From contig NZ_CP042911.1 in assembly GCF_008065095.1 (NCBI RefSeq), positions 2,160,001 through 2,192,000 of the forward strand: 32,000 bases of DNA, written 5' to 3'. The notes beneath the pieces are model-generated. The model ran no database searches, was not told the DNA's origin, and saw only the letters and a program-made list of their open reading frames with translations. Below are positions 3,101 through 29,202 of the stretch, one piece after another. The stretch is from Gemmata obscuriglobus. Its GTDB lineage: Bacteria; Planctomycetota; Planctomycetia; Gemmatales; Gemmataceae. Numbering within the stretch: position 1 is the first letter of the stretch; every line of letters starts with the position of its first letter. A program made the position numbers and the translations under genes.

Positions 3101-3174
3101 GTGGCGCCCAGAAAGAAGCACGCGCGTAGTTTAGCACCGAACGGGGCGGGGCGCCTGCTGATGCGCCAGAAGCG

Positions 3175-3237
3175 TGAGCGGCGGCGCGGGGCGGGCGCGA
3201 CACAAATGATGTCGCGCCCGCCCCGCGCCGCCGCTCA
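3175..3237 (-). terminator. Perfect 28-bp GC-rich stem with a 7-nt loop between the Fe-S gene and the kinase gene; candidate terminator or attenuator
   Basis: The left arm at 3175-3202 is tgagcggcggcgcggggcgggcgcgaca. The loop at 3203-3209 is caaatga. The right arm at 3210-3237 is tgtcgcgcccgccccgcgccgccgctca, the exact reverse complement of the left arm. The structure begins 26 nt downstream of the stop at 3263-3265 on the minus strand. No U-tract follows it on the minus strand, so the intrinsic-terminator call is only moderate. The structure itself is certain. Confidence 0.55.
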
Positions 3238-3262
3238 GACTTCCCACACACCGTTCGGTCGT

Positions 3263-6022
3263 TTAGTCGTGGGTTTCGAGCCGGTGCAGCACTTCGGTAA
3301 GCAGTCCCGGGCCGCTCATCCGGTACGCGGCTTCGTGCGGGCACGCTTGAACGCAGAACGGCTCGTTGCCGCCGCACAGGTCGCAGTTGACGGCGCGCCG
3401 GGCGGCGATCTTGAGCGGGTCGCCGCTGGGGTGCTGGGTCGCGGCCGGGTTCGGGGTGCCGCGGGCGGTCATGTGGATCGCACCGTAGGGGCAGTTGCGC
3501 TCGCACAGCCCGCACCCGATGCAGTGGTTCTCGATCACCACCTCCAGGTGCGCGCCGCGGCGGTGGATCGCGTCCACCGGGCACCCCTCCATGCAGTACG
3601 GCTTCTGGCACGAGCGGCACGAGGTGGCGACCAGGAAGTCGCCGAACCGCAGCCCCTCGCGGAGCAGCCGGGCGTTACCGTCGTGCGAGTCGGCGCACGC
3701 CTTGGTACACTCGTCGCACCGGGTGCAGCTCTTCAGGTCGAGCACCAGCAGCCGCTGCCCCTGGTAGAGCCCCTGGCGGACGTAGTCGCGGAGGACCGCC
3801 GGGGGCGGGTCCTTGGCGACGCCCGGGACCGCGCGGCGCGGCCCCTCTTCCATGTGCTCTTTGAGCTTCGGGAACCGCTCGCACAGCCGGCGGAACACCG
3901 GGCCGGGGACCCGCACCACCTCGACCGGGTCCAGCGCCGCGACGGTCGCGGTGCGCACCCCGGGGCGGTCCGACAGCAGCCCGCGCTCGCCGAAGCTGTC
4001 GCCGGCGGACAGCAGCCGCAGCACCTGCTCGGCCCCGCCGGCCGTGGTGAACACCCGCACGGTGCCCAGCCGGATGATGTAGAACGCGGCCGCGACGTCC
4101 CCTTCGGACACGATCGCCTCGCCCGCCTCGACCCGGGCGAACGTGACCCCCTCGCTCAGCAGGAACGTCGCCGCCTGCTCCCGCTCCATCTTGTCGAGCG
4201 CCTCGAACACGCGGCTGTTCTGCACGCCGGTCTGGATCGCGCGCAGGGTGTACATCTCCTGGATGTCCTCGCGGGCCGAGGCCGACCGCTGCATCATGTC
4301 GAGCATGTTGCGGGTGATCTCGTACACCACCACCGGGCCGCGCTTCTTCGGGTTCCGCGCGACGGTGGGCCATCCGTTCTCGTCGTACCCCAGGGTGAGT
4401 TCGGGGCTGTCGTCCTCGGCGACCGCGACCACGGTCGCGGTGCGCGGGCGCTGGGTGAAACAGGTCATCTCGCCGAGCACCAGCTCGTCCCCGGACGACA
4501 CCTTCACCAGCGCCCCGTAGTCGCCCGCCGCGCGCTTCTTTTTCTTCTTCGCCCCGCCGAACAGGCTGCCGAGCAGCCCGAGCCGCACCTCGGGCTCCGG
4601 CCCGCGGACGTAGATCTCGAACGTGCCGGTCCCTTGCAGGAGGAACGCGGTGCTGCCGTACTCGCCCTCGTCGCACAGCACCTTGCGGTCGCCCGGGCGG
4701 ATCTCCCACCGGCGCACGGCCCCCTCGTTCCACTTGAGGTACGAGTACGGGATGGAGCGGAACGGGAACACGACCCGCGCCCCGCGGGTGGGGCTCTCGT
4801 ACAGGAGCCACACGTCCCGCATCTGGTCGGCGGTCAGGAAGTCGGACCCCTCCGGGAACGGGGTGTTCGGGTTCACCGGCACCTGCTCGGGCGAGTCGTC
4901 GCCCCACGCCCGGGGCCGCACGCGGCGGCGCAGCGACAGCGCGCCGGTGGGGCAACTGTTCATGCACTCGCCGCACTGCACGCAGGTGCTGTCCCGCATG
5001 ACGCTGTCGAGGTCGAAGCTGATGCGGGTGCCGTACCCCTTGCCGGTGTGGCCGATCACCTTGAACGGCTTCACCTCGGAGCACGCCCGCACGCACCGGT
5101 CGCACACGATGCACCGGTCGTGGTCCACCACCACCGTGCGCGACGAGTAGGGGTAGTCCTTGTCGATCTGCGCGTTCCACTCCTCCCAGGCGTCGCGCAG
5201 CTCCGGCGCCTCTTCCGTCAGCTCGTTTTCGCGGAGGGTGGGGAGGAGGGGCAGGTTGACGCGCCGGGACTTGGGGATCGCCTCTTCGGCCGCGTTGCGG
5301 CTCGGCAGGGCGGCGGGCTTGCGCAGGCTCGGCCGCGCCTCCAGCACCTCCAGCGACCGGGCCACCGTGGACAGCTCGTCCTCGTACCGCTTGGTCTCGG
5401 TGAGCGGCTCGTGGAGGCAGTCGGCGACGAGGAACTCGGCGAGCAGCTTGACCGACTGGTTGACGCTGTCTGCCGCGTCCCGGATGGTCTTGGCGGTCTT
5501 TTCGTCGCCCGTGGCCTCGTCGCGCTTCTGCGGGTTGTACCCGTCGAGCCCGGCGCGGGTGGTGACCACCATATTGGTTTCGACGCGGTGCTGGCACGCG
5601 GGCACCAGCTTGCGCCCGGGGGTCAGCTTCCCGCGCTTCATGCTCGAGATGTGGACCGAGCACATGCGGCACACCGCGACCGGGGCGACGTGCCGCTGGT
5701 GGCACAGCACCGGGATGCGCTCCTTCAGCTCCTCTTCCGTCCACGCCCCGGCGGCGACGAGGGCCGCGGCGGCGTCGTAGATGGTCGTGGTGCGCGGGAT
5801 CTCCTTGCCGTCGGCGTCGCGGACGACGTTCCCCTGCGCGTCGGTCTTGGGCACCGCGCGGGGCACCTCGACCGGGAACCCGTCGATGACGACGGTGACG
5901 AGGTCCCGGAACCGGTCGCGGGTCTCTTTCTCGCGCCGCACGAGCACGTCGTTGTCGTCGCGGGCGAAGAGGGACTCTTCTTCGCGGCCCAGGAAGATGT
6001 CGGGATCGGCGATGTCAGGCAT
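3263..6022 (-). CDS. Multidomain Fe-S protein: NuoG/HndD-type N-terminus ([2Fe-2S] + 2x[4Fe-4S]), two cyclic-nucleotide-binding domains, DmsB/HybA-type 4x[4Fe-4S] C-terminus
   Basis: The protein is 919 aa. The [2Fe-2S] pattern is C107-x10-C118-x2-C121-x21-C143. The two-cluster ferredoxin patterns are C304xxC307xxC310xxxC314 and C347xxC350xxC353xxxC357P. The cNMP phosphate-binding cassettes are LGEMTCFTQRPRTATV (aa 516-531) and FGERGLLSDRPGVRTATV (aa 677-694). The C-terminal clusters are C766xxCxxCxxxC776, C802xxCx4CxxxC814P, C834xxCxxCxxxC844P and C880xxCx6CxxxC894P. There is no molybdopterin or H-cluster domain and no TM helix. Confidence 0.9.
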   Translation of the reverse strand: MPDIADPDIFLGREEESLFARDDNDVLVRREKETRDRFRDLVTVVIDGFPVEVPRAVPKTDAQGNVVRDADGKEIPRTTTIYDAAAALVAAGAWTEEELKERIPVLCHQRHVAPVAVCRMCSVHISSMKRGKLTPGRKLVPACQHRVETNMVVTTRAGLDGYNPQKRDEATGDEKTAKTIRDAADSVNQSVKLLAEFLVADCLHEPLTETKRYEDELSTVARSLEVLEARPSLRKPAALPSRNAAEEAIPKSRRVNLPLLPTLRENELTEEAPELRDAWEEWNAQIDKDYPYSSRTVVVDHDRCIVCDRCVRACSEVKPFKVIGHTGKGYGTRISFDLDSVMRDSTCVQCGECMNSCPTGALSLRRRVRPRAWGDDSPEQVPVNPNTPFPEGSDFLTADQMRDVWLLYESPTRGARVVFPFRSIPYSYLKWNEGAVRRWEIRPGDRKVLCDEGEYGSTAFLLQGTGTFEIYVRGPEPEVRLGLLGSLFGGAKKKKKRAAGDYGALVKVSSGDELVLGEMTCFTQRPRTATVVAVAEDDSPELTLGYDENGWPTVARNPKKRGPVVVYEITRNMLDMMQRSASAREDIQEMYTLRAIQTGVQNSRVFEALDKMEREQAATFLLSEGVTFARVEAGEAIVSEGDVAAAFYIIRLGTVRVFTTAGGAEQVLRLLSAGDSFGERGLLSDRPGVRTATVAALDPVEVVRVPGPVFRRLCERFPKLKEHMEEGPRRAVPGVAKDPPPAVLRDYVRQGLYQGQRLLVLDLKSCTRCDECTKACADSHDGNARLLREGLRFGDFLVATSCRSCQKPYCMEGCPVDAIHRRGAHLEVVIENHCIGCGLCERNCPYGAIHMTARGTPNPAATQHPSGDPLKIAARRAVNCDLCGGNEPFCVQACPHEAAYRMSGPGLLTEVLHRLETHD

Positions 6023-6121
6023 GGTGGAACCCGTGTCCTGGCGAGCGAGGGCGCGAGCCCTGGCGTGACCTGTGGCGACGAGGCGATGCGTGCGCTGCGT
6101 GGGGGGAGCGGTGCCGGCCCG

Positions 6122-8182
6122 CTATTCGGCGGGCTTCCGCCCGTTCGCTTTGGGTGCGTCATCGACGAAGTACTCGAGCGCCGTCGCCAGCGGGATCGGG
6201 GCCACGTACCCCAGGCCGCAGATCGAGGTGAGCTGGAGCGTCTTCGTGATCTCTTTCACGTCCTTCTTGATCGCGGCCAGGTCGTCGGCCGGCAGCCGGC
6301 CCGCGCGGCGGCTCTTCAGCAGCCCCTCGCCGATCTGCACCAGCTTCTGCGACCCGAGCCGGCACGGCACGCACTTCCCGCACGACTCGTTTCGGTAGAA
6401 CTGCGTGTAGTTCACCGCCTGGTCGAGCACGTCCACGTCGCCCGCGTACACTGTGATGGCGGCGCCGAGCATCGCTTCCACGGGGAGCCGCAGCGCGCCG
6501 TTCAGGTGCCGGAAAAAGTTCAGGTCAAGGGGGATCTTGAGCACGTCGAGTTCGGTCGCGCCGAGCGGCAGGTGCGTGTTGAGGAACCACTCCATGAAGT
6601 CCGCGTCTTGCGCCGAGCGGTCGCGGATGCGGGCGACCGCGTCCGCCCGCTTCTTGGCGTCGAACTTGGGATCGACCGGCAGCTTCGCCGGGACCAGCCC
6701 GCCGGACGGGCCGGACGCGGCCACCGCCCGCAGCGGGCCGGTGATCCCGCCGCAATACTTGTCCCCGTTGAACAGCTCGCCGAGGGTGAGGCCGATCGCG
6801 ACCTCGTACACCCCGGGGCGCGCCACGTCGCCGCTGACCGAGAACAGCCGCCGCCCGCCGAACTTGATCTTCGGGTCGGTCGCCAGCCGCCACCCGCCCA
6901 TCTCGTACTTGTCGCCGCCGAACAGGATGATCCCCGGCGCCCAGGCCAGCGTCTCGACGTTGTTCACCACCGTCGGCTTGTCGCGGAACCCGTTGGCCGA
7001 CAGCTCCGGCGGCCGGTTCCGCGGTTGCCCGCGGCGGTCCTCCATTGCCTCGATCAGGGCCGACTGCTCGCCGCAAATGTACCCCCCCGGGCTCTCGAAC
7101 ACCTCGACCGGGAAGTTGCGTCCCGACCCGAAGATGTTCGGGCCGCACGCGCCGAGCTCTTGCGCGCGTTTGATCTCTTCTTTTAGGGCGTGGATCTGCT
7201 CGAAGTACTCGTGGCGGACGTAGATGTGCCCGCTGGTGGCGCCGGTCATGAGCCCGGCGAGGATGACCCCCTCCACCACGAGGTGCGGCATCCGCAGGAG
7301 GATCTCGCGGTCCTTGAAGGTGCCGGGTTCGCTCTCGTCGCCGTTGCAGACGATGTACTTCTCGTTGCCCGGCTGTTGCCACACGTCGAGCCACTTCTGG
7401 TACGCCGGCGCGCCGGCCCCGCCCATCCCGAGCAGGTTCGCCGTCTTGAGCTCCCACAGCAGCGGGTGGAACCGCTGGACGTAGGTCTCAAGGTCCTTGC
7501 CGCCCAGCTCGCGCGGGGGCGGCACGAGCGGCCGGATGAGCCGAGCCAGGTAGTCCGTGAACCGCTTGACGGCGCGGTAGTCGCGGGGCCAGCCCTGGCG
7601 CCCGTAGATGTCCAGCGACCAGCCCGCCGTGCGCGGCGCCGGGTGCTCCGGGTCGGCGATCACGCCCTTGGGTATCGCGTAACCGCGGTTGGTGTTGGTG
7701 TGCGGCTCGTAAGTCGCGTCGGTGTCCGGCTCGGGCGGGTCGCGGTCCGCGGCGAGGTCCCGCAGCACCCCTTCGAGGAACTCGCCGTCGCGCCCGGCGT
7801 AGACCCAGGCGTGAACGTGTTCGGGCATGGGCCGCTTCTCGACCCACACCGCCGGGGCGCGGTCGCACCGGCCCAGGCACGAAACGCCCTCGACGCACAC
7901 ACTCTTGCCGGTCGCCTCGGACAATTCGGCCGCGAGCACCGGCAGCCCGGTGCGCTCGTCCAGCAGCGCCGCGGCCCCGCGGTGGTGGCAGGTCAGGTCG
8001 CGGCACACCCGCATCTCGATCTCGGGCGGGTTGGTGCGTTCGAGCTTGAACGCGGGGAAAAAGCTGCTGACCTCCTCAATGCGGTACAGCGGCACGTTGA
8101 TCTCGTGCGCGAGCGCCCGCAGCTCCTTATCGGGGAGGAAGCCGAACCGGTTTTGGATGTCGCGGAGCCGCTGAACGATCAT
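6122..8182 (-). CDS. NuoE-NuoF fusion protein (NADH-oxidising flavoprotein module: thioredoxin-like [2Fe-2S] + FMN/NADH site + [4Fe-4S])
   Basis: The protein is 686 aa. The NuoE part begins MIVQRLRDIQNRFGFLPDKELRALAHEINVPLYRIEEVSSFFPAF and carries CRDLTC...CLGRC, a Cx4C...Cx3C pattern. The NuoF part has GMGGAGAPAYQKW (FMN loop), YIVCNGDESEPGTFKDREIL, GGYICGEQSALIEAME, VVNNVETLA, an SLBB-like RRLFSVSGDVARPGVYEV, and ESCGKCVPCRLG...SICGLG ([4Fe-4S]). The start is ATG at 8182. Confidence 0.92.
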   Translation of the reverse strand: MIVQRLRDIQNRFGFLPDKELRALAHEINVPLYRIEEVSSFFPAFKLERTNPPEIEMRVCRDLTCHHRGAAALLDERTGLPVLAAELSEATGKSVCVEGVSCLGRCDRAPAVWVEKRPMPEHVHAWVYAGRDGEFLEGVLRDLAADRDPPEPDTDATYEPHTNTNRGYAIPKGVIADPEHPAPRTAGWSLDIYGRQGWPRDYRAVKRFTDYLARLIRPLVPPPRELGGKDLETYVQRFHPLLWELKTANLLGMGGAGAPAYQKWLDVWQQPGNEKYIVCNGDESEPGTFKDREILLRMPHLVVEGVILAGLMTGATSGHIYVRHEYFEQIHALKEEIKRAQELGACGPNIFGSGRNFPVEVFESPGGYICGEQSALIEAMEDRRGQPRNRPPELSANGFRDKPTVVNNVETLAWAPGIILFGGDKYEMGGWRLATDPKIKFGGRRLFSVSGDVARPGVYEVAIGLTLGELFNGDKYCGGITGPLRAVAASGPSGGLVPAKLPVDPKFDAKKRADAVARIRDRSAQDADFMEWFLNTHLPLGATELDVLKIPLDLNFFRHLNGALRLPVEAMLGAAITVYAGDVDVLDQAVNYTQFYRNESCGKCVPCRLGSQKLVQIGEGLLKSRRAGRLPADDLAAIKKDVKEITKTLQLTSICGLGYVAPIPLATALEYFVDDAPKANGRKPAE

Positions 8183-8303
8183 CGCTGACCCTTGAGAGGT
8201 CGTAGGACGGAGGTCTGGGACAGAGGACGCCGGTCAGGAGCCAGAACGCACAGGTGTTTTCTTTGGCTACTGTTTTCTGTCGTCTGCCCTGTGCCCTCGG
8301 GTC

Positions 8304-9941
8304 TCATTCTTGCTTGGTGCTGCCCGTGAGCCACTGCTTGAGCGACAGCGGCGTTCCGCTTTCGCGGGCGGCGGCCCCACGCCCCTGGAGCGGGTTGTCG
8401 CCGTTGTGGTACCGGTGGCAGTCGGTGCAGTTGTGCCGGGCGCCGCCGCCCGCCACGTCGGTGCCGTCGGGCAGCTTGACGACAGTGCCGACCGGCGCGT
8501 GACAGGCCCGGCACGTGTTCAGCCCGAGGATCTGGACCGGCTCCGGTTTGTTCGCCTCGACCGGCGACACGTATGCGGCTGCGGTGCCGGGGTGGCACGT
8601 CGCGCAGGTGGCCCCGCGGTGTGATGCGTGGTTGAACGTCGCGTGCCGGAGCCAGACGGTGCGGTCCGGTACCGCCGCGATTTTCGTCCTCGCGCCGCCA
8701 GCGCCTGCGGTCACCGTGTGGCACTTCGCGCAGCTCCCGCGGCTGCCGAACAGGTTAGCCTCCGCGTCCGCGGTGAGGCGTTCGGCGGTGTGGCCCAGCG
8801 TCGGCGGGGCGAGCGGTTGTTGCGGGTCCAGTTTCCCGCCCAGTTCCGGCGGGCGGGCGAGTGCGGGGTGGCCGCCGTCGCTCAGCCCCTTCAGGTAGCC
8901 CGCCTTGAGTTCGGCCGCGAGGTCCGCGGGCTGCTTGCGGTGCGCCAGCTCGAACCGCGGCACGGCGAACTTCTTGCCCCCTGACTCGGCGACGGCCTCG
9001 GGGGCGGCTAGCGGGTGGCACGACCGGCAGTGCGCCTCGAAGTTGACCGGCAGGAAGTACGCACCTTCCGCGCGCGGCGGGAACAGCGCGTCCGCCGGGG
9101 CGCCCTTCGTCAACGTCGCCTTCACCTTGTCCAGTTCCGGGGAGCCGGCGCCGGCGTCGAGCGCGTGGCACGACGCGCACGCGAGCTGAACCTTCGCGCT
9201 GTCGGGTTGGCCGGGGGCGAAGCGGGCGACGGCCGCGGCACCGCCCAGCTCACGGAGCCGGGCGACGGTCATCGCTTCCTTCCCGTCCGCGCTGTACGCC
9301 TGCCCCGGACTCATGTGGACCGCGTGGCTGAACGTGAGTGTCCGCGGGCTCTTGGTGATGTCAAGCGACCGAAACTCCGGGTGGTCGGTCACGAAGTTGG
9401 TCACCTTGTTCGCGTAAGGCGGCTCGCCGCGGGCCGCGGTGAGCGACCGGTCCGCATCGTGGTACCGGTTGAGTTCGGCGTGGCACCAGTTGCAGTCCTT
9501 GTCGGCAAGCCGGACCAGCGAGTTGAGCCGCCCGTTATGGTCGTGGTGGCAGTTCGAGCACCGGTCGTGGAACGCCTGCGCCTCCTTATTGGAGGAGGCG
9601 TGGTGCGGCGGCCCCGCGTGGCACTTCTCGCAGGTGAGATCGTGCCACCGGTCCCGCGCCCGGAAGGCGTCGAGCGGATTCAGACTCACCTTATGCGCCT
9701 TGTGGCACGCCTCGCAGTTGTTGTCGAACGCCGCGTGGACGTCGGCGAGTTGGCCGTGCGAGTGGGCGTACTGGACCCGCTGGGCCGGTTTGGCCACATC
9801 GACCGCCGCCCAGACGCCGGCCCCGATGAGGGCAATGGCGGTGAGGGCGCGGCGGGCGCGGCGGAACACGTCGGGGCTGCGGAAGTACCCGCGCCGCCCG
9901 ATGTACCGGTCCGACAGGTCGCGACTAGGGGAGCGGGGCAT
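8304..9941 (-). CDS. Membrane-anchored decahaem c-type cytochrome
   Basis: The protein is 545 aa with an N-terminal hydrophobic anchor ALTAIALIGAGVWAAV. It has ten CXXCH motifs: CEACH, CEKCH, CSNCH, CNWCH, CASCH, CRSCH, CAKCH, CATCH, CRACH, CTDCH. It also has c3/c7-like distal-His motifs (FSHAVH, FNHASH). Confidence 0.92.
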   Translation of the reverse strand: MPRSPSRDLSDRYIGRRGYFRSPDVFRRARRALTAIALIGAGVWAAVDVAKPAQRVQYAHSHGQLADVHAAFDNNCEACHKAHKVSLNPLDAFRARDRWHDLTCEKCHAGPPHHASSNKEAQAFHDRCSNCHHDHNGRLNSLVRLADKDCNWCHAELNRYHDADRSLTAARGEPPYANKVTNFVTDHPEFRSLDITKSPRTLTFSHAVHMSPGQAYSADGKEAMTVARLRELGGAAAVARFAPGQPDSAKVQLACASCHALDAGAGSPELDKVKATLTKGAPADALFPPRAEGAYFLPVNFEAHCRSCHPLAAPEAVAESGGKKFAVPRFELAHRKQPADLAAELKAGYLKGLSDGGHPALARPPELGGKLDPQQPLAPPTLGHTAERLTADAEANLFGSRGSCAKCHTVTAGAGGARTKIAAVPDRTVWLRHATFNHASHRGATCATCHPGTAAAYVSPVEANKPEPVQILGLNTCRACHAPVGTVVKLPDGTDVAGGGARHNCTDCHRYHNGDNPLQGRGAAARESGTPLSLKQWLTGSTKQE

Positions 9942-10060
9942 CTCTTAACCCGACGGTTGGTGCTCGGTGTCTCGTACCTGGTGCCTGCCATACGTTCGAC
10001 GCGGGTGACCACGCACCGGTGCAGAACGTGTGGCCCGCCGAATGCAGTATGCAACACAAC

Positions 10061-10942
10061 TTACCAGTACTTCAGCGCCCGGACCGCGTGGAGGACCATG
10101 AGCGAGAACATGGCCCACGACAGCGGGATGTGAACCAGGAGCCAGCCGTGCAGCCACGCGTGCAGGGTCCGCTGGTCGTCCCAGCGGCGGCGCAGGTCGG
10201 CGAGCCCCTGGAGCTTGTCGAGCGCGCCGCGGGCGTCCGGCGGGACCGCCTCCCGGAGCCGGGCGAACCGGCGCTCGGCCTCGGCGCGGGCGGTCAGGGG
10301 CGACCGCGACTGCCGCCCTTGTTCCAGATAAGGGAGCAGCACCTCGTCGCGGAACGCCTCGAGTTCGCCGGCCAGCGGTCCGCTGATGACCGGCTCGTCG
10401 GATTCGGACTCCGGGGGCACCGTGGTGAGCGCGGTGATGAGCTGCCGGGCCTCGTCGGCCTGGTACTCGCCGAGCCGGTCGATTTGCGACGCGATCGACT
10501 CGCCCGGGATGTCTGCGAGCATCTTTTGGGGGAGCCACTGCTGCATCACCAGGCCCCAAACGCCGCTCGCGATGACCGCAAGGAACAGCGCCATCGTGGC
10601 CGCCGGGAGCGGGCCGCCGAACCCGAACCCGCCGTGGATCAGAATCACCGGCAGGCACAGGAGCCCGAGCCAGATGTGCAACCGCATCCAGGTGCGGGTG
10701 CGGCCGAGCCGGTGCCCGCGCAGCATTTTGCGGAACACCAGGGCCATTTCGAACGCGATGATGATCCCGCCCGCGACCCCGCACAGCACCCCGAACCCGC
10801 TGCTGGGCTGCGGGGGCCAGTCCCACAGCCCGAGGAGCCCGCCGACCCAGGCGACGGCCGTGACGGCAACCGTGATCCCGACGGTGGCACCGATGATGGT
10901 GAACACCCGGCGCGGAACGGTCTTGGTCTTACCGAGAAGCAC
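10061..10942 (-). CDS. Integral membrane protein, putative di-haem b-type transmembrane electron carrier (cytochrome b / ferric-reductase-domain-like)
   Basis: The protein is 293 aa with about five hydrophobic helices. H89-x13-H103 lies in RLHIWLGLLCLPVILIH, and H271-x13-H285 lies in VHIPLSWAMFSLMVLH. A ~120-aa charged helical insert (aa ~137-255) sits between TM4 and TM5. The start is GTG at 10942, and there is no nearby in-frame ATG. Family assignment is by pattern only. Confidence 0.7.
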   Translation of the reverse strand: MLLGKTKTVPRRVFTIIGATVGITVAVTAVAWVGGLLGLWDWPPQPSSGFGVLCGVAGGIIIAFEMALVFRKMLRGHRLGRTRTWMRLHIWLGLLCLPVILIHGGFGFGGPLPAATMALFLAVIASGVWGLVMQQWLPQKMLADIPGESIASQIDRLGEYQADEARQLITALTTVPPESESDEPVISGPLAGELEAFRDEVLLPYLEQGRQSRSPLTARAEAERRFARLREAVPPDARGALDKLQGLADLRRRWDDQRTLHAWLHGWLLVHIPLSWAMFSLMVLHAVRALKYW

Positions 10943-11206
10943 TCGCGGCTCCGATCATGACGCCGTATTTCGTGTTACGGTGAGGATAGTACCCCTCGTG
11001 CGCGGGGCGGTCAACTATTTCGAACAGGAACTTCGGCCCCGGTGACACCGGGGCGTCACCCGCGGCCGGCGCGCGACCTTGTGAGGCGCATTCGTGATGG
11101 ACGGCGCTTGCCGTCCGGCCCGGAAATGTTGAACATGGGGGACGCACCGGCGGGCGCGTCCCGTGGCTCGCGTTTTGAACACCCGCTCAACTATTATCGG
11201 CTGACA
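10943..11206. promoter_or_regulatory. Divergent intergenic control region between the two arms of the redox island
   Basis: This is 264 bp between divergent starts at 10942 (-) and 11207 (+). It contains a 19-bp perfect palindrome gccccggtgacaccggggc at 11036-11054. That palindrome overlaps an alternative stem ggtgac/gtcacc (11041-11046 / 11055-11060). There is a hairpin ggacggc-gctt-gccgtcc at 11099-11116 and a hairpin gggacgc-N10-gcgtccc at 11139-11162. The AT-rich 9-mer TCAACTATT occurs twice (11011-11019 and 11187-11195), each time next to a TT(C/T)GAACA motif. I could not place promoter hexamers confidently. Confidence 0.5.
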
Positions 11207-12664
11207 ATGAATCTCAGCGCGCGTACAGTTCTCGTCACACTGGTGGCGGCCGCGGTCGGCCTCGCGGTCGCGGTCGGCGCGGCCCGGGCCGTCAAACCCG
11301 ACACCGTGACGGTTCCGAAGTACGAGCCGGTCCACCCGACTTCCGACGCGCCAACCGAGCGCCGGCCGGTCGGCGCGGTCGGGTGCATGGCCGCCGCGTG
11401 TCACGGCGCGCCCGCCGGTGAACTGCTCAACGGCCGGAGCGGCCCCGACACATGGGCCGCTTCGGGGAGCTGCTGGGCCGCAGCCGATCCGCACACGGCG
11501 GCCTACAGCCTGCTGACCGACCGCCCGCGGCGTAGCGTGGTGGTGACCGCGGCCCGGATCATGGCGAAGTACCGACCGGGGGTGAAGGCGACCGACGACG
11601 CCCGGTGCCTGGCGTGTCACACCAACCCGACGCTCGCGGAACTCCCCGCGACGACTGAAGTGGTTGCGCTCCGCGAGCAGGGGGTGAGCTGTGAGGCGTG
11701 CCACGGTAACGCGGGACAGTGGATTCAACCGCACACCGGGTGGACCGGCGACCGGGCGCAGGTGTACCGCGAGACCGGATTAAAACCGCTGTACGACATG
11801 GGCGAACGGGCGGTGACCTGCGCTGGGTGCCACGTCGGGGCGCCGGCCGACGGCTCCAACCCGGTGCGCGACATGAACCACGACATGATCGCGGCCGGGC
11901 ACCCGCGGCTGAACTTCGACTTCGCCGAGTACCAGCGCCGGCTCCCGAAACACTGGCACGAGAAGGAACGAACGAGCGGCGCGGCCAAACTGAACGAGTC
12001 GCAGGTGTGGTACGTCGGGCGGTTGGCCCACGCGGAGACCGCGTGCCGGCTCCTGGGGAGCCGGGCGCAGCGGACCGAGGCGAACGACGCCCGGACGGTC
12101 TGGCCCGAGTTCGCCGAGTTCAACTGTGCCGCTTGCCACCACAACTTGCGCGCTCCCGAGGAGGACGGCGGGCACTGGCGCAAGAGCGCGGAATACCTCG
12201 ACGGCCGCCCGATCGGTTCGACCCCGTGGCAAACGATCTGGCCCGTGACGCACGCGCCAGGACTGCCGCAGCCGCGCCGGGCGACCTCTGAAGTCGCGGC
12301 GCTGGTGCGGCTGATGGAGGGGGAGACCGGGCAGACGTGGCCCGACGGCCGGCCCAAGGTGCTCCGCTTCGCGAAGGCCCCGGATGCGAAGGGGCTGGCT
12401 CTCGCCACCGCCGATGCGCTCGCGGCGGCCCGGCGCGAGGCGGCGGCGGGTACGAAGGGGCCGCCGCCCGGGCTGTTCCCGGCGGGCGCGCCGCTTGTGC
12501 CCGAGTGGGACAGCGCGGAACAACTGTTCTTCGGGCTCGCGGCGCGGGAATACGCCCGGGGCGCGCCCGCCGCCGGGACCGTGCAGAAGTACCGGACCGG
12601 CGTGGACGCGTTTCGCGCCCGAGACTGGCTGAAGGTCAAGGACGTGTTCACCGGGCTGCGCTAG
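11207..12664 (+). CDS. Secreted pentahaem c-type cytochrome, paralogue 1 (cytochrome c554-family-like signature)
   Basis: The track ORF is 11042..12664. I prefer the ATG at 11207, which gives a signal-like N-terminus MNLSARTVLVTLVAAAVGLAVAVGAARA. The haem sites are CMAAACH (CX4CH, nt 11384-11404), CLACH, GVSCEACHGN, CAGCH and CAACHH. It shares DPHxxAYSLL and DMNHDMIAAGHPRL with the two downstream paralogues. Confidence 0.88.
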   Translation: MNLSARTVLVTLVAAAVGLAVAVGAARAVKPDTVTVPKYEPVHPTSDAPTERRPVGAVGCMAAACHGAPAGELLNGRSGPDTWAASGSCWAAADPHTAAYSLLTDRPRRSVVVTAARIMAKYRPGVKATDDARCLACHTNPTLAELPATTEVVALREQGVSCEACHGNAGQWIQPHTGWTGDRAQVYRETGLKPLYDMGERAVTCAGCHVGAPADGSNPVRDMNHDMIAAGHPRLNFDFAEYQRRLPKHWHEKERTSGAAKLNESQVWYVGRLAHAETACRLLGSRAQRTEANDARTVWPEFAEFNCAACHHNLRAPEEDGGHWRKSAEYLDGRPIGSTPWQTIWPVTHAPGLPQPRRATSEVAALVRLMEGETGQTWPDGRPKVLRFAKAPDAKGLALATADALAAARREAAAGTKGPPPGLFPAGAPLVPEWDSAEQLFFGLAAREYARGAPAAGTVQKYRTGVDAFRARDWLKVKDVFTGLR

Positions 12665-12695
12665 GAGCGCGGCCCGCGAAGGATTCCCCGCACGG

Positions 12696-14240
12696 ATGCG
12701 ACGGAAGCGAACCGCGAGTGTGATCGTGCGCGCCGTTCCCCTTGTTGCGATGGCCCTCGCCGCTGGCGTCGTCGCCGGTGGCCTGAACGCGGTTCATTCC
12801 TCTCATCCCCCGACCCGCTCCCCTCAACTCGCGTCGGCGGTGGGTGCGGCGGGCGACAAGCCTTACGGGGTCGGGGCGGCGCCGTTCGCGCACCGGCCGA
12901 GCACCTCGTGCGCCGCGTCCGCCTGCCACGGCGGCGGCGCGATCGGCAAGGCGGGCAGCGAACACTCGACCTGGACCCGCGAGGCCGCGCCGTCCGCGAC
13001 CGGCGACCCGCACGCGAAGGCGTACAGCGTTCTGTTCAACCCGGTCTCGGTGCGGATGGGACAGTTGCTCGGGTTCGACGGCAAAAAGGAGCCGCTGCCC
13101 CACGAGAACACCAGGTGCCTCGTGTGCCACTCCGTGGCCGAGGGCGCGGGCGGCGGAGACGATCGCGAGCAGTTCCTGGCGGAGGGCGTGGGGTGCGGCG
13201 GGTGCCACGGGCCGGCGGACAAGTGGATCGCCGAGCACACGCTCCCGTCGTGGAAGGCCCGTTCTAACGAGTCCAAGTGGAAAGACTTCGGGTTCGTGCC
13301 CACGAAGAACCTCGTGGCGCGGACGCTGAACTGCGCGAGCTGTCACGTCGGCGACGGCACGCGCGACATGAACCACGACTTCATTGCGGCCGGGCACCCC
13401 AGACTGGCGTTCGAGCCGGCCCGCTTCCACGCCCAGCCCGACTACCGCAAGCACTGGACGGAGAAGGCCCCGGCCCGCGATTTCGAGGTTCGCGTGTGGG
13501 TGGTCGGTCAGGCCGCGACCCTTCGCGCGGCTGTGAATCTGCTTTACGAGCGGGCGCGGAAGGCCGAGACGCCGAACGTCTCGCACCCGTGGCCGGAGTT
13601 CAGCGGCTACAGTTGCTTCTCGTGCCATCAGACGATTGGGGGCGATGCGCTGCGGGGCGAACGGAGCGCAACCGCCCGCCCCGTCGGCAACCCGCCCTGG
13701 GAGGTGTGGGCGAACGCCGGCGCGGGTGTCGCGGCCGAAACTTGCGGCACGGCGTTTCCCGGGGTAAGCTCGCCACAGTTGTTGAAAGTGCAAGAGCTTC
13801 GCAAACTGATGGGGGCGAAGCGGGAGCCGAACCCGGCCGAGGTCGCGCGACTGGCGCTCGCCGCCCGGGACGAACTCGACCAGTGGCTGGCGCAGCTCCA
13901 GGCCGCCGAAGATCGGGAGCTTGTGCCCGTCCCCGAAGGGACGCCGCGCCGGATCGCGCACCTGCTCACCTCGCGGGCGCTGAACGGGGACAAGCTCGCG
14001 GACCACGACTGGGACGCGCTGGCGTCGACGTACCTGGGCGCCGCGTCGATGTGGACCGCGACCGGCGGTCGGGGCGGGCGCGAGGCGCTCTGGGGTGAGC
14101 CCCTGGCGCGGGTGTACGGCGCCCTGAAGTTCCCCCCCGGCTCGAACGGGCCGGTCAAGTTCGGCAAGCCGGAACTGGACACCATCTACAAGCAGCTCGA
14201 ACTGCTGCGCGACACGACGGGCACACCGGAGGGGAAGTGA
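12696..14240 (+). CDS. Secreted pentahaem c-type cytochrome, paralogue 2
   Basis: The protein is 514 aa with a signal/anchor MRRKRTASVIVRAVPLVAMALAAGVVAG. The haem sites are CAASACH (CX4CH, nt 12909-12929), CLVCH, GVGCGGCHGP, CASCH and CFSCH. Shared motifs are DPHAKAYSVL, DMNHDFIAAGHPRL and WPEFSGYSC. A GAAGGA sits ~12 nt upstream of the ATG. The gap to paralogue 1 is 31 bp. Confidence 0.9.
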   Translation: MRRKRTASVIVRAVPLVAMALAAGVVAGGLNAVHSSHPPTRSPQLASAVGAAGDKPYGVGAAPFAHRPSTSCAASACHGGGAIGKAGSEHSTWTREAAPSATGDPHAKAYSVLFNPVSVRMGQLLGFDGKKEPLPHENTRCLVCHSVAEGAGGGDDREQFLAEGVGCGGCHGPADKWIAEHTLPSWKARSNESKWKDFGFVPTKNLVARTLNCASCHVGDGTRDMNHDFIAAGHPRLAFEPARFHAQPDYRKHWTEKAPARDFEVRVWVVGQAATLRAAVNLLYERARKAETPNVSHPWPEFSGYSCFSCHQTIGGDALRGERSATARPVGNPPWEVWANAGAGVAAETCGTAFPGVSSPQLLKVQELRKLMGAKREPNPAEVARLALAARDELDQWLAQLQAAEDRELVPVPEGTPRRIAHLLTSRALNGDKLADHDWDALASTYLGAASMWTATGGRGGREALWGEPLARVYGALKFPPGSNGPVKFGKPELDTIYKQLELLRDTTGTPEGK

Positions 14241-16054
14241 TGACGACGGGACACGCGGGGCGGACCGCCCGCGCCGCCGGACTTGCGGCGGTGTTCGCGG
14301 GCCTCGCGCTCGGGCTGGCGGTCGCCGTCAGCCCGCCGCGGGCCGCTGTCGCCGCGCAGGATGACAAGAAGGAGCCGCCGCGCCCCACCGAGGCCCAGAA
14401 GAAGGACCACGCCCTGCTCGGCGCGTCCCAGTGCAAGAAGTGCCACTCGGTCGCCGACCGGAAGGCGGCGGGCCTTGAGGAGTACGAGGAGACGAAGGCC
14501 TACGACTTCATCCGGCTCTCGGAGAACATCGTGTGGAGCGCGCACGACCTGCACTCCACCGCCTACCGGAGCCTGCTGACCGAAGAGACCGCAAAGGGGT
14601 CCAAGTTCACCCCCAACAAGACGGCCGAGCGGATGGAGCAGAAGCTCCGCAAATACAAGGGCGACAGCTACCGGGTGGCGACCGACACCGCGTGCCTCGC
14701 GTGCCACGCGAGCGTGCGCCAGCCGGTCGACAAGGTCCCACCGGACGCGTGGAAGGCCGGCAAGCTGACCGCGGGGAACCTCGCGGGCGGCTCGTTCACC
14801 AGCCTCGAAGGGGTGGGCTGCGAGATGTGCCACGGCCACGGGACGATGTATCAGACGGTCCACCAGGCGTCGCGCGAGGGCGACACCAACCCCGGGGCGC
14901 TGAAGGTGGTCGACTGGCGGCTGTTCCCGACGGCGGTGAAGACGGAGTGGGGCCTTAACAACCTTCGCGACCCGGCCGTCGCGGCCCAGACGTGCGCGTC
15001 GTGCCACATCGGCAACAAGGCCGAGGGGCGGTTCGTGACCCACGACATGTTCGCGGCCGGGCACCCGCCGCTGCCGCCGCTGGACCTGATGGCCTACACC
15101 CGCGAGCAGCCGCGGCACTGGGGGTTCGCGGGCGACATGCCGTTCATCACCAAGATGGCCGAGAACAAGGCGACCGCGGACAAGGCGTTCGCACTGTACC
15201 GCTACCGCGCGGGCGAGTCCCTCGTGGCCCGGCGGTTCGCGGAATCGGCCCTCGCGGTGCTGGGCGCCACCGCCGGCCTCGGCGCGCAGCTCGCCGACGA
15301 CGCGAAGGCCAAGGGCGACGGGCTCGACTTCTCGGCGTTCGACTGCTACTCGTGCCACCACAACCTGAAGTACCCGAGCGAGCGGCAGGATCGCGGCTAC
15401 GTCGGGCGCCCGGGGCGGCCGCTGTACCGTCCGGCGGCGTTCGCGCTCGCCCGGCTCGTGCTCGACCACGCCGGCGGGATGACGGGCGGTGAGTCCCTCA
15501 AGGGGGCCGCGAACGAACTCGACAAGCTGGAACTGGAACTGGCCGACGCGTTCACCGTGAAGACCTACGGCGACGCCGACAAGGTGAAGGCCGCGACCGC
15601 GAAACTCGCGGCCTGGAGCGAGGGCGTCCGAAAGAAACTCGAGCCGGTGCGGTACACGCCCGAGGAGGTCGCCAAGCTGTTCACCAAGCTGACCGCGGTC
15701 GCGAGCGACGCGAAGAAGCCGGTCGGTGACCCGGAGGTCGCCCAACTGTACCTGTGGGCGGCCGAGACGCTGTACCTGGACCTCCAGCCCAAGGAACTGA
15801 CGGATAAGGCGGTCGAGCCAAAGGCCCTCAAGGCGATGCGCGACGGGATCGCGGCGTCGGTCGTGACCCGGCTGCGCCCGGACACCGACTTCTACTATGA
15901 ACAGCGCTTCGTCGAGGGGAAATCGAGTCCGATCGAGAAACCGACGACCAACGACTCGGTCGAGCGCCGGCTCGAAAAGCGGATGGACATCTTCAACGCC
16001 TTCCGCGGCGATCCGTTCCGCATGGCGGTCGAGGGGCTGAAGCTCCCGAAATAG
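14240..16054 (+). CDS. Secreted pentahaem c-type cytochrome, paralogue 3 (longer C-terminal helical domain)
   Basis: The protein is ~604 aa. The start is GTG at 14237 or ATG at 14240, inside GTGATGA, which overlaps the TGA of paralogue 2 (translational coupling). The haem sites are CKKCH, CLACH, GVGCEMCHGH, CASCH and CYSCHH. Shared motifs are DLHSTAYRSLL and THDMFAAGHPPL. Confidence 0.9.
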   Translation: MTTGHAGRTARAAGLAAVFAGLALGLAVAVSPPRAAVAAQDDKKEPPRPTEAQKKDHALLGASQCKKCHSVADRKAAGLEEYEETKAYDFIRLSENIVWSAHDLHSTAYRSLLTEETAKGSKFTPNKTAERMEQKLRKYKGDSYRVATDTACLACHASVRQPVDKVPPDAWKAGKLTAGNLAGGSFTSLEGVGCEMCHGHGTMYQTVHQASREGDTNPGALKVVDWRLFPTAVKTEWGLNNLRDPAVAAQTCASCHIGNKAEGRFVTHDMFAAGHPPLPPLDLMAYTREQPRHWGFAGDMPFITKMAENKATADKAFALYRYRAGESLVARRFAESALAVLGATAGLGAQLADDAKAKGDGLDFSAFDCYSCHHNLKYPSERQDRGYVGRPGRPLYRPAAFALARLVLDHAGGMTGGESLKGAANELDKLELELADAFTVKTYGDADKVKAATAKLAAWSEGVRKKLEPVRYTPEEVAKLFTKLTAVASDAKKPVGDPEVAQLYLWAAETLYLDLQPKELTDKAVEPKALKAMRDGIAASVVTRLRPDTDFYYEQRFVEGKSSPIEKPTTNDSVERRLEKRMDIFNAFRGDPFRMAVEGLKLPK

Positions 16055-16071: not shown

Positions 16072-16109
16072 CGCAAAACGGGTTCCCTTGAGTGGGAACC
16101 CGTTTTGCG
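16072..16109 (+). terminator. Rho-independent-type terminator hairpin after the cytochrome operon
   Basis: A perfect 16-bp stem joins cgcaaaacgggttccc (16072-16087) and gggaacccgttttgcg (16094-16109), with loop ttgagt. It starts 18 nt after the TAG at 16052-16054 and is followed by ttat. Confidence 0.75.
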
Positions 16110-17458: not shown

Positions 17459-17553
17459 TTGTGAGCACACTTCGACCGCGGGACAGGTCTGGGCGAACCG
17501 GGCGCGAGCGGCCCGTCAAAACATTCGTTACCGGGGCGTAACCGTTTTGTGGG

Positions 17554-18009
17554 TCAGGTCCGGTTCTCGTGGCTCTTTTCGTAGGCGTCCACTTTCTCGC
17601 GGCGGCGGGTGTGGCGCCCGCCCTCGAAGTCGGTCAGCAGCCACGCCCGGATGATGCGCTCGATTTGGTCTTCCCCGAGCAAGTCCGCCGCCAGACACAG
17701 GATGTTCGAGTCGTTGTGTCGGCGGCTCAGCTCGGCGTCGATGACATCGCGGCTGTTGACGGCCCGGATGCCGTGGACCTTGTTCGCCGCGATGCACATC
17801 CCGTGACCGGTCGCGCAGATGAGGACGCCGCGGTCGGCTTTACCGGCGGCTACCTCTTCGGCCACCGGGATCGCGTAGTCGGGGTAGTCCACGCCGGCCG
17901 GTCCGCTGGCGCCGAGGTCGTGCACCTCGTGCCCCAGTTCGGCCAGCAACCCGAGGACGCGCGGCCGCACGCACAGCCCGCGGTGGTCGTTGCCCACGGC
18001 AACCTTCAT
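17554..18009 (-). CDS. rpiB: Ribose-5-phosphate isomerase B (RpiB/LacAB family)
   Basis: The 151-aa product is MKVAVGNDHRGLCVRPRVLGLLAELGHEVHDLGA...GVLICATGHGMCIAANKVHGIRA...SRRHNDSNILCLAADLLG. These are the classic RpiB motifs (GxDHxG, C-x-T/S-G-x-G, NK..G.RA, HN..N.L). The ATG at 18009 overlaps the upstream TGA (ATGA). The 298-aa track ORF extension is rejected. Confidence 0.9.
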   Translation of the reverse strand: MKVAVGNDHRGLCVRPRVLGLLAELGHEVHDLGASGPAGVDYPDYAIPVAEEVAAGKADRGVLICATGHGMCIAANKVHGIRAVNSRDVIDAELSRRHNDSNILCLAADLLGEDQIERIIRAWLLTDFEGGRHTRRREKVDAYEKSHENRT

Positions 18010-19037: not shown

Positions 19038-19212
19038 GGCGCGGCGGTCCCCCGGACGGCAAGTGGAACTGTACCCAATATTAGAAAAGAAGAGGCGAAA
19101 GGGCGAGAGGGAGTCGAGAGTCTTGCTCATTGCTGGTTGTTAGACCAACGCCGCGGCTCGATCGCTCATGTGAGCGGCCGAACCGCGGCGCGGTGGGAGC
19201 CGCCGGCCGGTT

Positions 19213-22696: not shown

Positions 22697-22703
22697 TCAC
22701 GGC

Positions 22704-22742
22704 CGCCGCGACCATCACGAACGCCGTGTGGTGGTCGCGGCG
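22704..22742 (+). terminator. Hairpin just after the DUF1559 gene stop; candidate terminator
   Basis: An 11-bp stem joins cgccgcgacca (22704-22714) and tggtcgcggcg (22732-22742), with a 17-nt loop. It starts 8 nt after the TGA at 22694-22696 and is followed by tgttgctcgtg. Confidence 0.45.
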
Positions 22743-22827
22743 TGTTGCTCGTGTCTGCTGATAACTGGTCGTGTGCCGGATTGTCCCGACTTCGCGCCGT
22801 CCTACACGGCCTCGCGTGTACGAAGAA

Positions 22828-22890
22828 GATTTTGACAGGATCGACAGGATAAACAGGATCGGCAGAATTAGGACGGATTCTGTCAAAATC
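22828..22890. repeat. Intergenic repeat cassette: 15-bp inverted termini enclosing 9-bp-phased ACAGGAT direct repeats
   Basis: The termini gattttgacaggatc (22828-22842) and gattctgtcaaaatc (22876-22890) are reverse complements with one mismatch. Inside, ACAGGAT occurs at 22835, 22844 and 22853 (9-bp period). Degenerate units gcagaat and gacggat follow. The local G+C is visibly lower than that of the flanks. Confidence 0.7.
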
Positions 22891-23121
22891 TACTTGGCTT
22901 CTCGTCGCGCCGTACCAACCCGATGCGCACTGACTGAGCTTCTGCTCTGATACCCCCTTGCGGTAGAGTTCGAGAGCATTCGTGGGTTGGCGCCAGGGGT
23001 GGTACGCTCTTGTCGGGAGGCGTGTCGCACGTCCGTCACGATCCGGTCTGCCATCGTTTGGCCGTTGCAACTCCCGCTGGAATCGATCACCCGTTTGGGA
23101 GCACGTTGGAAGGTGCGAGTG

Positions 23122-29185: not shown

Positions 29186-29202
29186 CTCGCACAGAAGACC
29201 AA

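Follow-up and report, generated by a model that had tools for sequence, protein, structure and literature searches.

Genes and layout of the locus

A 32,000-nucleotide stretch of the genome of Gemmata obscuriglobus (contig NZ_CP042911.1, forward-strand positions 2,160,001 to 2,192,000; hereafter the window, numbered from 1) carries, between positions 3263 and 16054, two divergent groups of genes encoding a NuoE-NuoF fusion, a large iron-sulphur (Fe-S) protein with cyclic-nucleotide-binding (CNB) domains, a small membrane protein and four multihaem c-type cytochromes. An earlier interpretation made from the DNA letters alone (the sequence-only reading) had proposed that these genes specify an electron conduit across the membrane, linking reduced nicotinamide adenine dinucleotide (NADH) to the cytochromes; its domain assignments all hold in the profile searches reported here. 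The window proteins are 99% identical, in a protein-level comparison, to those of Gemmata algarum JC673 contig 133. We denote the minus-arm genes A to D and the plus-arm genes E to G:

3263-6022, minus strand: gene A, 919 amino acids (aa), predicted cytoplasmic Fe-S 'wire'
6122-8182, minus strand: gene B, 686 aa, NuoE-NuoF fusion
8304-9941, minus strand: gene C, 545 aa, periplasmic decahaem cytochrome c with an N-terminal transmembrane (TM) anchor
10061-10942, minus strand: gene D, 293 aa, 5-TM protein, putative di-haem b transmembrane electron carrier
10943-11206: divergent control region, 264 bp
11207-12664, plus strand: gene E, 485 aa from the ATG at 11207, signal-peptide pentahaem cytochrome with a helical C-terminal domain
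12696-14240, plus strand: gene F, 514 aa, pentahaem paralogue of E and G
14237-16054, plus strand: gene G, 605 aa, paralogous pentahaem whose start overlaps the stop of F (GTGATGA)
16072-16109, plus strand: perfect 16-bp hairpin (16072-16087 and 16094-16109) closing the plus arm

The divergent arms, the control region between them, the 31-bp gap separating E from F, the overlap of F with G and the closing hairpin are all as the sequence-only reading had described, while its count of eight genes needs correction. Third-position GC content (GC3), which we used to tell genes from the spurious long open reading frames (ORFs) of a high-GC genome, identifies exactly seven genes within 3263-16054, and an eighth is reached only by counting a Ser/Thr protein kinase gene at 1217-3121. 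Long overlapping or antisense ORFs at 1874-7186 (plus strand) and 9945-10826 (minus strand), one of them encoding 1770 aa, fail the GC3 test and were rejected as high-GC artefacts.

The scan of the window covered the seven genes and ten flanking ORFs, with the stretches 17459-18005, 22697-24262, 28470-29334 and 30916-32000 left out. Among the scanned ORFs there is no match to Nuo membrane subunits, to molybdopterin proteins, to NiFe or FeFe hydrogenase or Mo/W catalytic subunits, or to NrfD, and it is for these ORFs only that the absences listed by the earlier reading are borne out. Membrane Nuo subunits and NiFe, FeFe, Mo or W catalytic subunits are likewise missing from the related loci examined, and the cluster contains no CXXCK motif, again as claimed.

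A NuoE-NuoF fusion and an Fe-S protein with cyclic-nucleotide-binding domains

Protein B exceeds the Pfam gathering cut-offs of 2Fe-2S_thioredx, Complex1_51K and NADH_4Fe-4S, and SLBB is also matched. The motifs C60-x4-C65, C102-x3-C106, GMGGAGAPAYQK, DESEPGTFKDR, C601-x2-C604-x2-C607 and C655 are all intact and between them cover the flavin mononucleotide (FMN), NADH, N3 [4Fe-4S] and N1a [2Fe-2S] sites, so the proposed NuoE-NuoF fusion stands. Its best relatives in the PDB are HydB, NuoF and HoxF (1e-68 to 1e-50). Neither complex I equivalog is reached: B scores 289.9 bits against a cut-off of 558.65 for TIGR01959 (nuoF_fam) and 57.3 bits against 142.4 for TIGR01958 (nuoE_fam), and because its score lies so far beneath the NuoF threshold we do not regard it as a complex I subunit. 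B has neither a signal peptide nor a TM segment, and the same is true of A.

According to Pfam and NCBIfam, protein A consists of a module resembling HoxU and the N-terminus of NuoG, two CNB domains and a four-cluster ferredoxin, arranged as follows:

5555-5770, minus strand: residues 85-156, [2Fe-2S] domain (Fer2_4) with C107, C118, C121 and C143
Residues ~161-290: poorly conserved linker
4925-5134, minus strand: residues 297-366, two [4Fe-4S] motifs (C304-C314, C347-C357), Fer4_Nqo3-like, of NuoG/HydA type
4223-4765, minus strand: residues ~420-600, divergent first CNB-like domain, cassette G517-E518...R527-T-A529
3875-4135, minus strand: residues 630-716, second CNB domain, cassette G678-E679...R690-x-A692
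3308-3757, minus strand: residues 756-905, ferredoxin of HycB/DmsB/HydN type with four [4Fe-4S] motifs

The 28 cluster cysteines (4 + 8 + 16) are each at least 99% conserved in 116 homologues and correspond to one [2Fe-2S] and six [4Fe-4S] clusters, exactly the complement first proposed. Sequence matches in the PDB are to the CNB domains of PKG and PKA, to the N-termini of HydA, FdhA and Nqo3, and to HycB. Of the two proposed cyclic nucleotide monophosphate (cNMP) domains, the second is significant (Pfam cNMP_binding, PF00027, E = 1.5e-24), and the G-E...R-x-A phosphate-binding cassettes of both regions are conserved at 0.93-1.0 in the 116 homologues, with the G, E, R and A of the first cassette at 0.96-1.0; the first region itself is weak by Pfam (E = 0.002, below threshold) and, searched alone against the PDB, has no match. 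This first region is found too in a 531-aa protein encoded at a related locus, L045, described below.

A putative di-haem membrane protein

Protein D has five hydrophobic segments, and loop counts of Lys plus Arg of 4, 0, 6 and 0 place its N-terminus inside and its C-terminus outside. A helical insert of 125 aa (residues 137-261) lies on the cytoplasmic side. Two of the segments carry paired histidines:

10631-10693, minus strand: TM3, residues 84-104, with H89 and H103 (H-x13-H)
10079-10159, minus strand: TM5, residues 262-288, with H265, H271 and H285 (H271-x13-H285)

The two H-x13-H pairs noted in the sequence-only reading are a family-wide feature: H89, H103, H271 and H285 are invariant or at least 90% conserved, even in relatives at 30-35% identity (alignments A1, A2, A4 and A5). 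TM3 and TM5 both run from inside to outside, and each pair has one histidine near the cytoplasmic face and one near the periplasmic face. D thus displays the pattern expected of a di-haem b protein, two His pairs about 13 residues apart on parallel TM helices, and judged by this pattern it is a putative di-haem b transmembrane electron carrier.

The family to which D belongs is large, with 1803 clusters at 50% identity, and its distant relatives are named almost only 'hypothetical protein' in cluster look-ups. D itself matches DUF4405 at E = 0.0019 (19.1 bits, cut-off 26.7). Across 42 family members the matches are to DUF4405 (21/42, best 6.4e-5), Ferric_reduct (12/42, best 4.3e-4), Ni_hydr_CYTB (4/42) and PepSY_TM, every one of them sub-threshold.

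The multihaem cytochromes

Protein C has a single N-terminal TM segment (residues 31-51), ten CXXCH motifs and ten further histidines, and both sets are 100% conserved in 25 orthologues, in agreement with the TM-anchored decahaem cytochrome first described. By motif count the pattern fits an electron wire in which all haems would be bis-His ligated. Its match to HmcA is weak (E = 2e-7) and far below the cut-off.

E, F and G, correctly described earlier as three signal-peptide pentahaem paralogues, share 26-36% identity. The first haem site occupies the same alignment column in all three and is CX4CH in E and F and CXXCH in G:

11381-11401: CX4CH site of E, residues 59-65
12909-12929: CX4CH site of F, residues 72-78

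E and F each combine this site with four CXXCH motifs, and G has five CXXCH. The total of 25 c-type haem sites proposed for the cluster is therefore correct, and its make-up is 23 CXXCH plus two CX4CH. All five haem motifs of F, the CX4CH included, are invariant in 55 orthologues, as are H106, H136, H181, H227 and H234. The AlphaFold2 (AF2) model of F has a predicted local distance difference test score (pLDDT) of 78.5, falling below 50 around the first haem site (residues 71-103), and its C-terminal domain is all-helical. The haem region of the three proteins is only distantly c554/NrfB-like; none has a significant relative in the PDB, and a Foldseek search of the PDB with the F model gave no significant fold match.

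We considered and rejected an assignment of E, F and G as NrfA-type nitrite reductases, given that there is no CXXCK motif, that F has five extra invariant histidines and that Foldseek returned no match; the sole NrfA-related matches are at E = 0.28 to 1oah and 6.6e-4 to NrfB. As a separate observation, the top Foldseek matches of the helical C-terminal domain of F (13470-14240, residues ~260-514) are EfeM/EfeO/imelysin-like and non-significant (E ~1, probability 0.54). F also has a conserved acidic D-H-D-W-D motif at residues 436-440, and these features may hint at metal binding by the domain.

Co-localisation in related genomes

Scanning 185,579 species genomes with a D-family alignment yielded 39 loci, and a metagenome scan with distant D sequences added 80 more, mostly from soil. 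The families of B, A, D and C and a c554-like cytochrome, five in all, occur together in about 80 related loci despite shuffled gene order (D-C-B-A, B-A-D-C and D-C-F-B-A). About 30 Gemmatales loci, wherever the contig suffices, retain G-F-E / D-C-B-A down to 44-47% identity in D, for example in Limnoglobus roseus, Fimbriiglobus, Frigoriglobus and an 'Isosphaera sp.' metagenome-assembled genome (MAG). Isosphaera pallida ATCC 43644 has c554-like / B-A ... D-C, a Planctomycetales MAG (locus L047) has D-C-(c554-like)-B-A-phosphodiesterase-cyclase-kinase, and essentially all of the 37 soil metagenome loci longer than 6 kb have F-like / B-A-D-C. Protein A has even been split: on a 190-kb contig (L048) the order is c554-like / B-A1-A2-D-C, and the ferredoxin half of A has a gene of its own, coding for 234 aa, that ends 9 bp before D. 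A farmland contig (L045) encodes only the CNB-ferredoxin part of A, adjoining homologues of D and C (37% identity over A residues 421-902, 33% for D, 27% for C), together with an MtrB/PioB porin, an MtrA-like cytochrome and a cyclase.

The sequence-only reading had named a lack of synteny in related genomes as grounds for refuting it; the synteny instead extends, well past what was expected, through three gene orders and a gene fission. That five families stay together through shuffling, fission and long divergence strongly indicates functional coupling. That the genes form a functional unit, and of what it is composed, we regard as well supported. Database names of the homologues are limited to 'hypothetical protein', 'cyclic nucleotide-binding domain-containing protein' and 'cytochrome c family protein', and we found no homologue with an assigned function.

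Co-localisation might nevertheless reflect co-regulation with no single complex, B and A forming a soluble, cNMP-regulated NADH:ferredoxin-like oxidoreductase while D and the cytochromes perform an unrelated periplasmic redox task. The two arms are separate transcription units, the minus-arm genes are spaced at 99-121 bp, and a search for Rosetta-stone fusions of D with a partner among the longer D-family proteins found none. Such an arrangement would hardly explain, in the absence of functional coupling, a five-family neighbourhood kept through at least three orders in distant lineages; nor would it explain why the triad of CNB-ferredoxin, D and decahaem appears again in the porin-containing locus L045, in a composition also described for the ptd operon to which we return below. 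We consider it rather improbable.

A second alternative arises from two loci that have no A or B within 10 kb, namely L041, with D and C only, and L044, with D, C and one c554-like gene. These show that a D-C core can exist without an adjacent NADH module, and they keep alive as a rival the possibility that D and C form a quinol:cytochrome c oxidoreductase like CymA, NrfH or CbcL, joining the quinone pool to periplasmic cytochromes; A and B would then be accessories that feed or drain the same b-haems, or a separate, co-regulated NADH:acceptor enzyme. Di-haem b proteins of the Ni_hydr_CYTB and NarI types are usually quinone-reactive, and four of the 42 D-family members have weak Ni_hydr_CYTB matches. 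Yet the vast majority of loci have B and A alongside D even though the order is shuffled, the ferredoxin gene abuts D in L048, and we identified no quinone-site signature. The cytoplasmic insert of D is moreover conserved even in stand-alone D loci, which suggests a cytoplasmic partner encoded elsewhere. We judge a quinol-linked core unlikely, without thinking it far-fetched.

Signalling genes recur beside the module. A Ser/Thr kinase homologue adjoins it in at least 12 loci, in varying positions; a cyclase, a phosphodiesterase and a kinase stand together in L047 (17800-20193), and cyclases are found in L004 (3752-7625) and L045 (586-1860). The cyclases are adenylate/guanylate cyclases of the Guanylate_cyc type and the phosphodiesterase is PDEase_II/Apyc1-like. 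Such neighbours fit cyclic-nucleotide control of A, and the kinase at 1217-3121 is a possible regulator of the module in Gemmata. The same genes, with the CNB domains, could be taken to mean that A is mainly a redox or cNMP sensor and that the cluster informs the kinase of the redox state of the periplasm. Sensors usually contain far fewer cofactors than the 25 c-haem sites, seven Fe-S clusters and intact NADH/FMN site present here, and A has no output domain of the helix-turn-helix, kinase or GGDEF kind in Pfam or NCBIfam; furthermore, a strong hairpin separates the kinase gene from A in Gemmata and the position of the kinase varies from locus to locus. Of the accounts considered here, sensing is the one we find least credible.

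Proposed mechanism

Our analysis establishes which domains are present, that ligands and co-localisation are conserved, and which topology the charge bias indicates, and on this basis we propose that the seven genes encode one redox machine, probably gated by cNMP, that takes electrons from NAD(P)H in the cytoplasm and passes them to c-type cytochromes in the periplasm with no obligatory quinone step. We put the probability of this proposal at roughly 55%. The predicted topology is consistent with it, A and B being cytoplasmic, D having its N-terminus inside, C being TM-anchored and E, F and G having signal peptides. Electrons would enter by oxidation of NADH at the FMN of the NuoE-NuoF fusion and pass through the clusters of B into A, first to the HoxU-like [2Fe-2S] and two [4Fe-4S] clusters and then to the C-terminal four-cluster ferredoxin. 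The ferredoxin would dock on the cytoplasmic face or the insert of D, as NarH does on NarI, and two b-haems in D, ligated by H89/H271 and H103/H285 with one near each membrane face, would carry the electrons outward. The anchored decahaem C would then take them up, and the soluble pentahaems E, F and G would receive them from C and may serve as carriers or as terminal reductases.

The CNB domains, situated between the two Fe-S halves of A, would probably gate this flow in response to cyclic AMP or cyclic GMP. We propose cyclic-nucleotide gating because of that position and because genes for cyclases, phosphodiesterases and kinases recur nearby; some gate is to be expected, since outward export costs both NADH and membrane potential. 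Electrons run downhill from NADH (-320 mV) to b- and c-haems, and a membrane potential that is negative inside assists their outward movement. An outward direction is suggested by these thermodynamics together with the sub-threshold likeness of D, which is only to di-haem b reductase families, the characterised members of the NOX/FRE type conducting outward.

The machine could in principle run in reverse, periplasmic donors reducing E, F, G and C and the electrons moving inward by way of D and A until NAD+ is reduced at B, as in lithotrophic electron uptake. NuoEF modules are reversible in principle, and ptd-like clusters are reported from nitrite oxidisers (10.1101/2023.11.21.568154). On established thermodynamics, though, the potentials of c- and b-haems lie far above that of NAD+/NADH and inward flow would oppose the inside-negative membrane potential, and there is no coupling-ion module (NuoH-N or Rnf-like) among the scanned ORFs of the window. 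We therefore think reverse operation very improbable.

Several observations weigh against an outward NADH-driven machine of this kind. Complex formation and haem binding by D rest on inference from the features set out above, and so do the direction of flow, quinone independence, gating and the acceptor. No Pfam match of D rises above threshold; sequence and profile searches of the PDB with D gave no match, and a Foldseek search of the PDB with its AF2 model (pLDDT 88) returned nothing at E < 0.1 and no cytochrome b, its matches, to helical bundles of TorS sensors, ABC transporters and the like, being non-significant and allowing no fold assignment. Protein A lacks the His-ligated cluster that bridges the [2Fe-2S] cluster and the [4Fe-4S] pair in NuoG and HydA and has instead a poorly conserved linker of 130 residues, so that continuity of the Fe-S chain through A is unproven; the first of its CNB regions is the sub-threshold one. 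The minus-arm genes, with gaps of 99-121 bp between them, are not translationally coupled, the window contains neither an outer-membrane component nor an identifiable terminal reductase, and the loci with D and C but no neighbouring A or B must be counted here as well.

A more specific joint reading combines all these elements, namely a cNMP-switched, quinone-independent export of electrons from NuoEF through seven Fe-S clusters, two b-haems and 10 + 15 c-haems to periplasmic or extracellular acceptors such as Fe(III) or Mn(IV), extracellular acceptors being reachable with the LVIVD-nonahaem and beta-barrel partners found in relatives (see below). We offer this joint reading tentatively, as a possibility that may well prove wrong in one or more of its parts.

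If the general proposal is true, the cluster represents a widespread and so far uncharacterised quinone-free route for moving NADH electrons over the inner membrane, a testable basis for anaerobic or micro-oxic redox balancing or metal reduction in planctomycetes treated as strict aerobes, and the first case of CNB domains built into an Fe-S electron-transfer chain, tying second messengers to electron flux. The joint reading would, if correct, define the first electron-transfer chain gated by a second messenger and a new class of complex for respiration or redox balancing, and would imply regulated dumping of reducing equivalents in nominally aerobic soil and freshwater planctomycetes and in many uncultured soil bacteria. 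The gene set is widespread in cultured Gemmataceae, in Isosphaera and in many soil metagenomes, and cultured hosts (Gemmata, Frigoriglobus, Limnoglobus and Isosphaera pallida) make experiments feasible.

Control sequences, flanks and associated genes

Two further features lie beyond the 3' end of the minus arm:

3176-3236, minus strand: perfect inverted repeat with 27-bp arms and a 7-nt loop, between A and the kinase gene
1217-3121, minus strand: Ser/Thr protein kinase, 634 aa (Pfam Pkinase), separated from A by this hairpin

The hairpin, directly downstream of A and far longer than the 16-bp hairpin that ends the plus arm, probably closes the minus arm. Within the control region a promoter-like site, TTGACC-N17-TACTAT (10986-11014, minus strand), points at D and is kept in other Gemmataceae loci, where the motif GTTGACC...TACTATCC stands upstream of D. 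A second conserved motif, CTTGC-N(~19)-GAACATGG, lies on the E strand at 11080-11140 and upstream of E in several Gemmataceae loci; it does not fit the sigma-70 consensus. Inspection of the 264-bp region by eye only found no FNR/CRP-type palindrome.

The flanking genes are ordinary planctomycete genes with no redox tie and encode WD40, kinase, GT87 glycosyltransferase, leucine-rich-repeat and DUF1559 proteins. GC content is about 70% across the whole window, alike in the cluster and its flanks, so that the cluster is not, as the sequence-only reading called it, an 'island' in composition; nor is the gene set confined to Gemmata. The idea of a horizontally acquired island was rejected on the uniform GC content and the ordinary flanks. 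A flanking gene at 18006-19130 (minus strand) encodes an apparent fusion of Sua5/YciO/YrdC and low-molecular-weight phosphotyrosine phosphatase domains.

Other genes accompany the module elsewhere. In 21 of 54 related loci it is adjoined by a gene whose product, about 1250-1430 aa long, combines LVIVD beta-propeller repeats (Pfam LVIVD E = 3e-18) with nine CXXCH motifs, as in L011:655-4779 (plus strand), L107:12537-16385 (minus strand), L115:3528-7823 (plus strand) and 18 others, including Frigoriglobus and many soil contigs. Beside this gene, in L107:16417-18594 (minus strand), L066:16271-18508 (minus strand) and six other loci, is one for a protein of about 700 aa that carries a CarboxypepD_reg domain at its N-terminus and, in the manner of outer-membrane beta-barrels, has aromatic-x-F at its C-terminal end. 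The larger protein may extend the electron path outward in those organisms, and the smaller could be the porin partner in a new porin-cytochrome pair; the Gemmata window contains neither the nonahaem-LVIVD protein nor the putative beta-barrel.

In the Gemmataceae isolate CJuql4 a two-gene, PIN-domain, toxin-antitoxin-like cassette sits between B and A (L002:9258-9970) in a cluster otherwise undisturbed. Within a few kilobases of the module, six loci (e.g., L002:13542-15911 on the minus strand, L001:20493-20882 and L047:5007-7484) have a gene for a secreted protein, about 790-825 aa in length, that contains HbpS-like (haem-degrading or haem-binding) repeats and in one case a Dockerin domain.

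Comparison with known systems

A literature search on multihaem and NuoEF systems of Gemmata and planctomycetes, on DUF4405 and on LVIVD combined with multihaem proteins produced one relevant find, a 2024 preprint describing ptdABCDEFG, a putative porin-cytochrome operon of Alphaproteobacteria from oxygen-deficient zones whose function, according to its authors, "remains completely unknown" (10.1101/2023.11.21.568154). PtdA is a pentahaem cytochrome with a beta-sandwich, PtdB a porin, PtdC a flavin adenine dinucleotide (FAD)/NAD(P) oxidoreductase, PtdD a tetrahaem cytochrome, PtdE a cNMP-binding 4Fe-4S protein, PtdF a ferric-reductase-like TM protein and PtdG a periplasmic decahaem cytochrome; ptd clusters are also reported from Planctomycetes MAGs and nitrite oxidisers (10.1101/2023.11.21.568154). 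The C-terminal two-thirds of A, D and C correspond by description to PtdE, PtdF and PtdG, and an NAD(P)-linked dehydrogenase and pentahaem cytochromes are present in both sets. Homology of A, D and C to the Ptd proteins we infer from the published description and from the homology of our proteins to the triad of like composition in L045. The assertion of the sequence-only reading that no complex of this composition has been characterised is thus right in that we found no function assigned anywhere, and wrong in so far as an operon of related composition had already been named.

The two systems also differ. In Gemmata a NuoEF pair and a HoxU-like module fused to the PtdE-like protein take the place of PtdC, and the scanned ORFs of the window include no porin (PtdB), no tetrahaem (PtdD) and no reductase of the FAD/NAD(P) type. 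The pentahaem genes are triplicated and their products have a helical C-terminal domain where PtdA has a beta-sandwich; a profile of F matches cytochrome c552 (5ZE8), a relative of PtdA, at E = 0.003 only. The hosts differ as well, freshwater and soil Gemmataceae in the one case and marine or saline lineages in the other. If our proposal is true it would offer a way into the function of the still unexplained ptd clusters, whose transcription is high in marine oxygen-deficient zones.

Each half of the cytoplasmic module has relatives in the N-module of complex I (NuoEFG) and in HoxEFU, the diaphorase of NAD-linked hydrogenases and formate dehydrogenases, B having the NuoE and NuoF domains and the N-terminus of A resembling HoxU, NuoG and HydA with its [2Fe-2S] and two [4Fe-4S] clusters. 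B nevertheless falls under the equivalog cut-off, A has no His-ligated cluster and runs on into CNB domains and a four-cluster ferredoxin, and the scanned ORFs include neither NuoA-D or NuoH-N nor a hydrogenase or formate dehydrogenase catalytic subunit.

The membrane step invites comparison with NarH-NarI and FdnH-FdnI, in which a four-cluster ferredoxin of the DmsB/NarH/HycB type is likewise paired with a small di-haem b membrane protein, a role that in our cluster is putative. NarI has five TM segments and conducts electrons across the membrane; D, however, is not detectably homologous to NarI or FdnI, no molybdoenzyme is present, and the distal partner is a decahaem. In Hmc and Tmc of sulfate reducers and Cbc of Geobacter, periplasmic multihaem c-type cytochromes are similarly linked to cytoplasmic or membrane Fe-S proteins via a b-type cytochrome, but those systems have no NADH module or CNB domain and our cluster has no NrfD-like or HdrD-like subunit. 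From Mtr, Pio and Pcc it differs in that no outer-membrane barrel of the MtrB/PioB type lies beside the decahaem in the window, and a tblastn search with the porin and the MtrA-like protein of L045 found nothing there or in any other locus.

In the NOX, FRE and STEAP proteins, cytoplasmic NAD(P)H reduces a flavin, and electrons then pass over two b-haems held by His pairs of the third and fifth helices to an acceptor outside; the characterised members move electrons outward, and in NOX5 and DUOX a regulatory Ca2+ domain acts as the gate. The electron path proposed here follows the same logic, shared also by MsrQ, and Ca2+ gating parallels the proposed gating by CNB domains. The likeness has its limits: D has five TM segments and not six, its Ferric_reduct matches are sub-threshold and Foldseek finds no solved NOX or STEAP, and the cluster uses a NuoEF/Fe-S chain in place of an FNR-like FAD domain and a decahaem acceptor in place of O2 or a metal ion.

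The cluster falls outside every one of the classes examined, i.e., NOX/ferric reductase, NarH-NarI, complex I, Hox, Mtr/Pio and NrfA. By analogy it would function like a split, Fe-S-extended NOX or ferric reductase. As far as its predicted proteins allow it to be placed, it appears to combine transmembrane electron export of the ferric-reductase type with a multihaem conduit, and the insertion of CNB domains into the Fe-S chain would be its unprecedented element.

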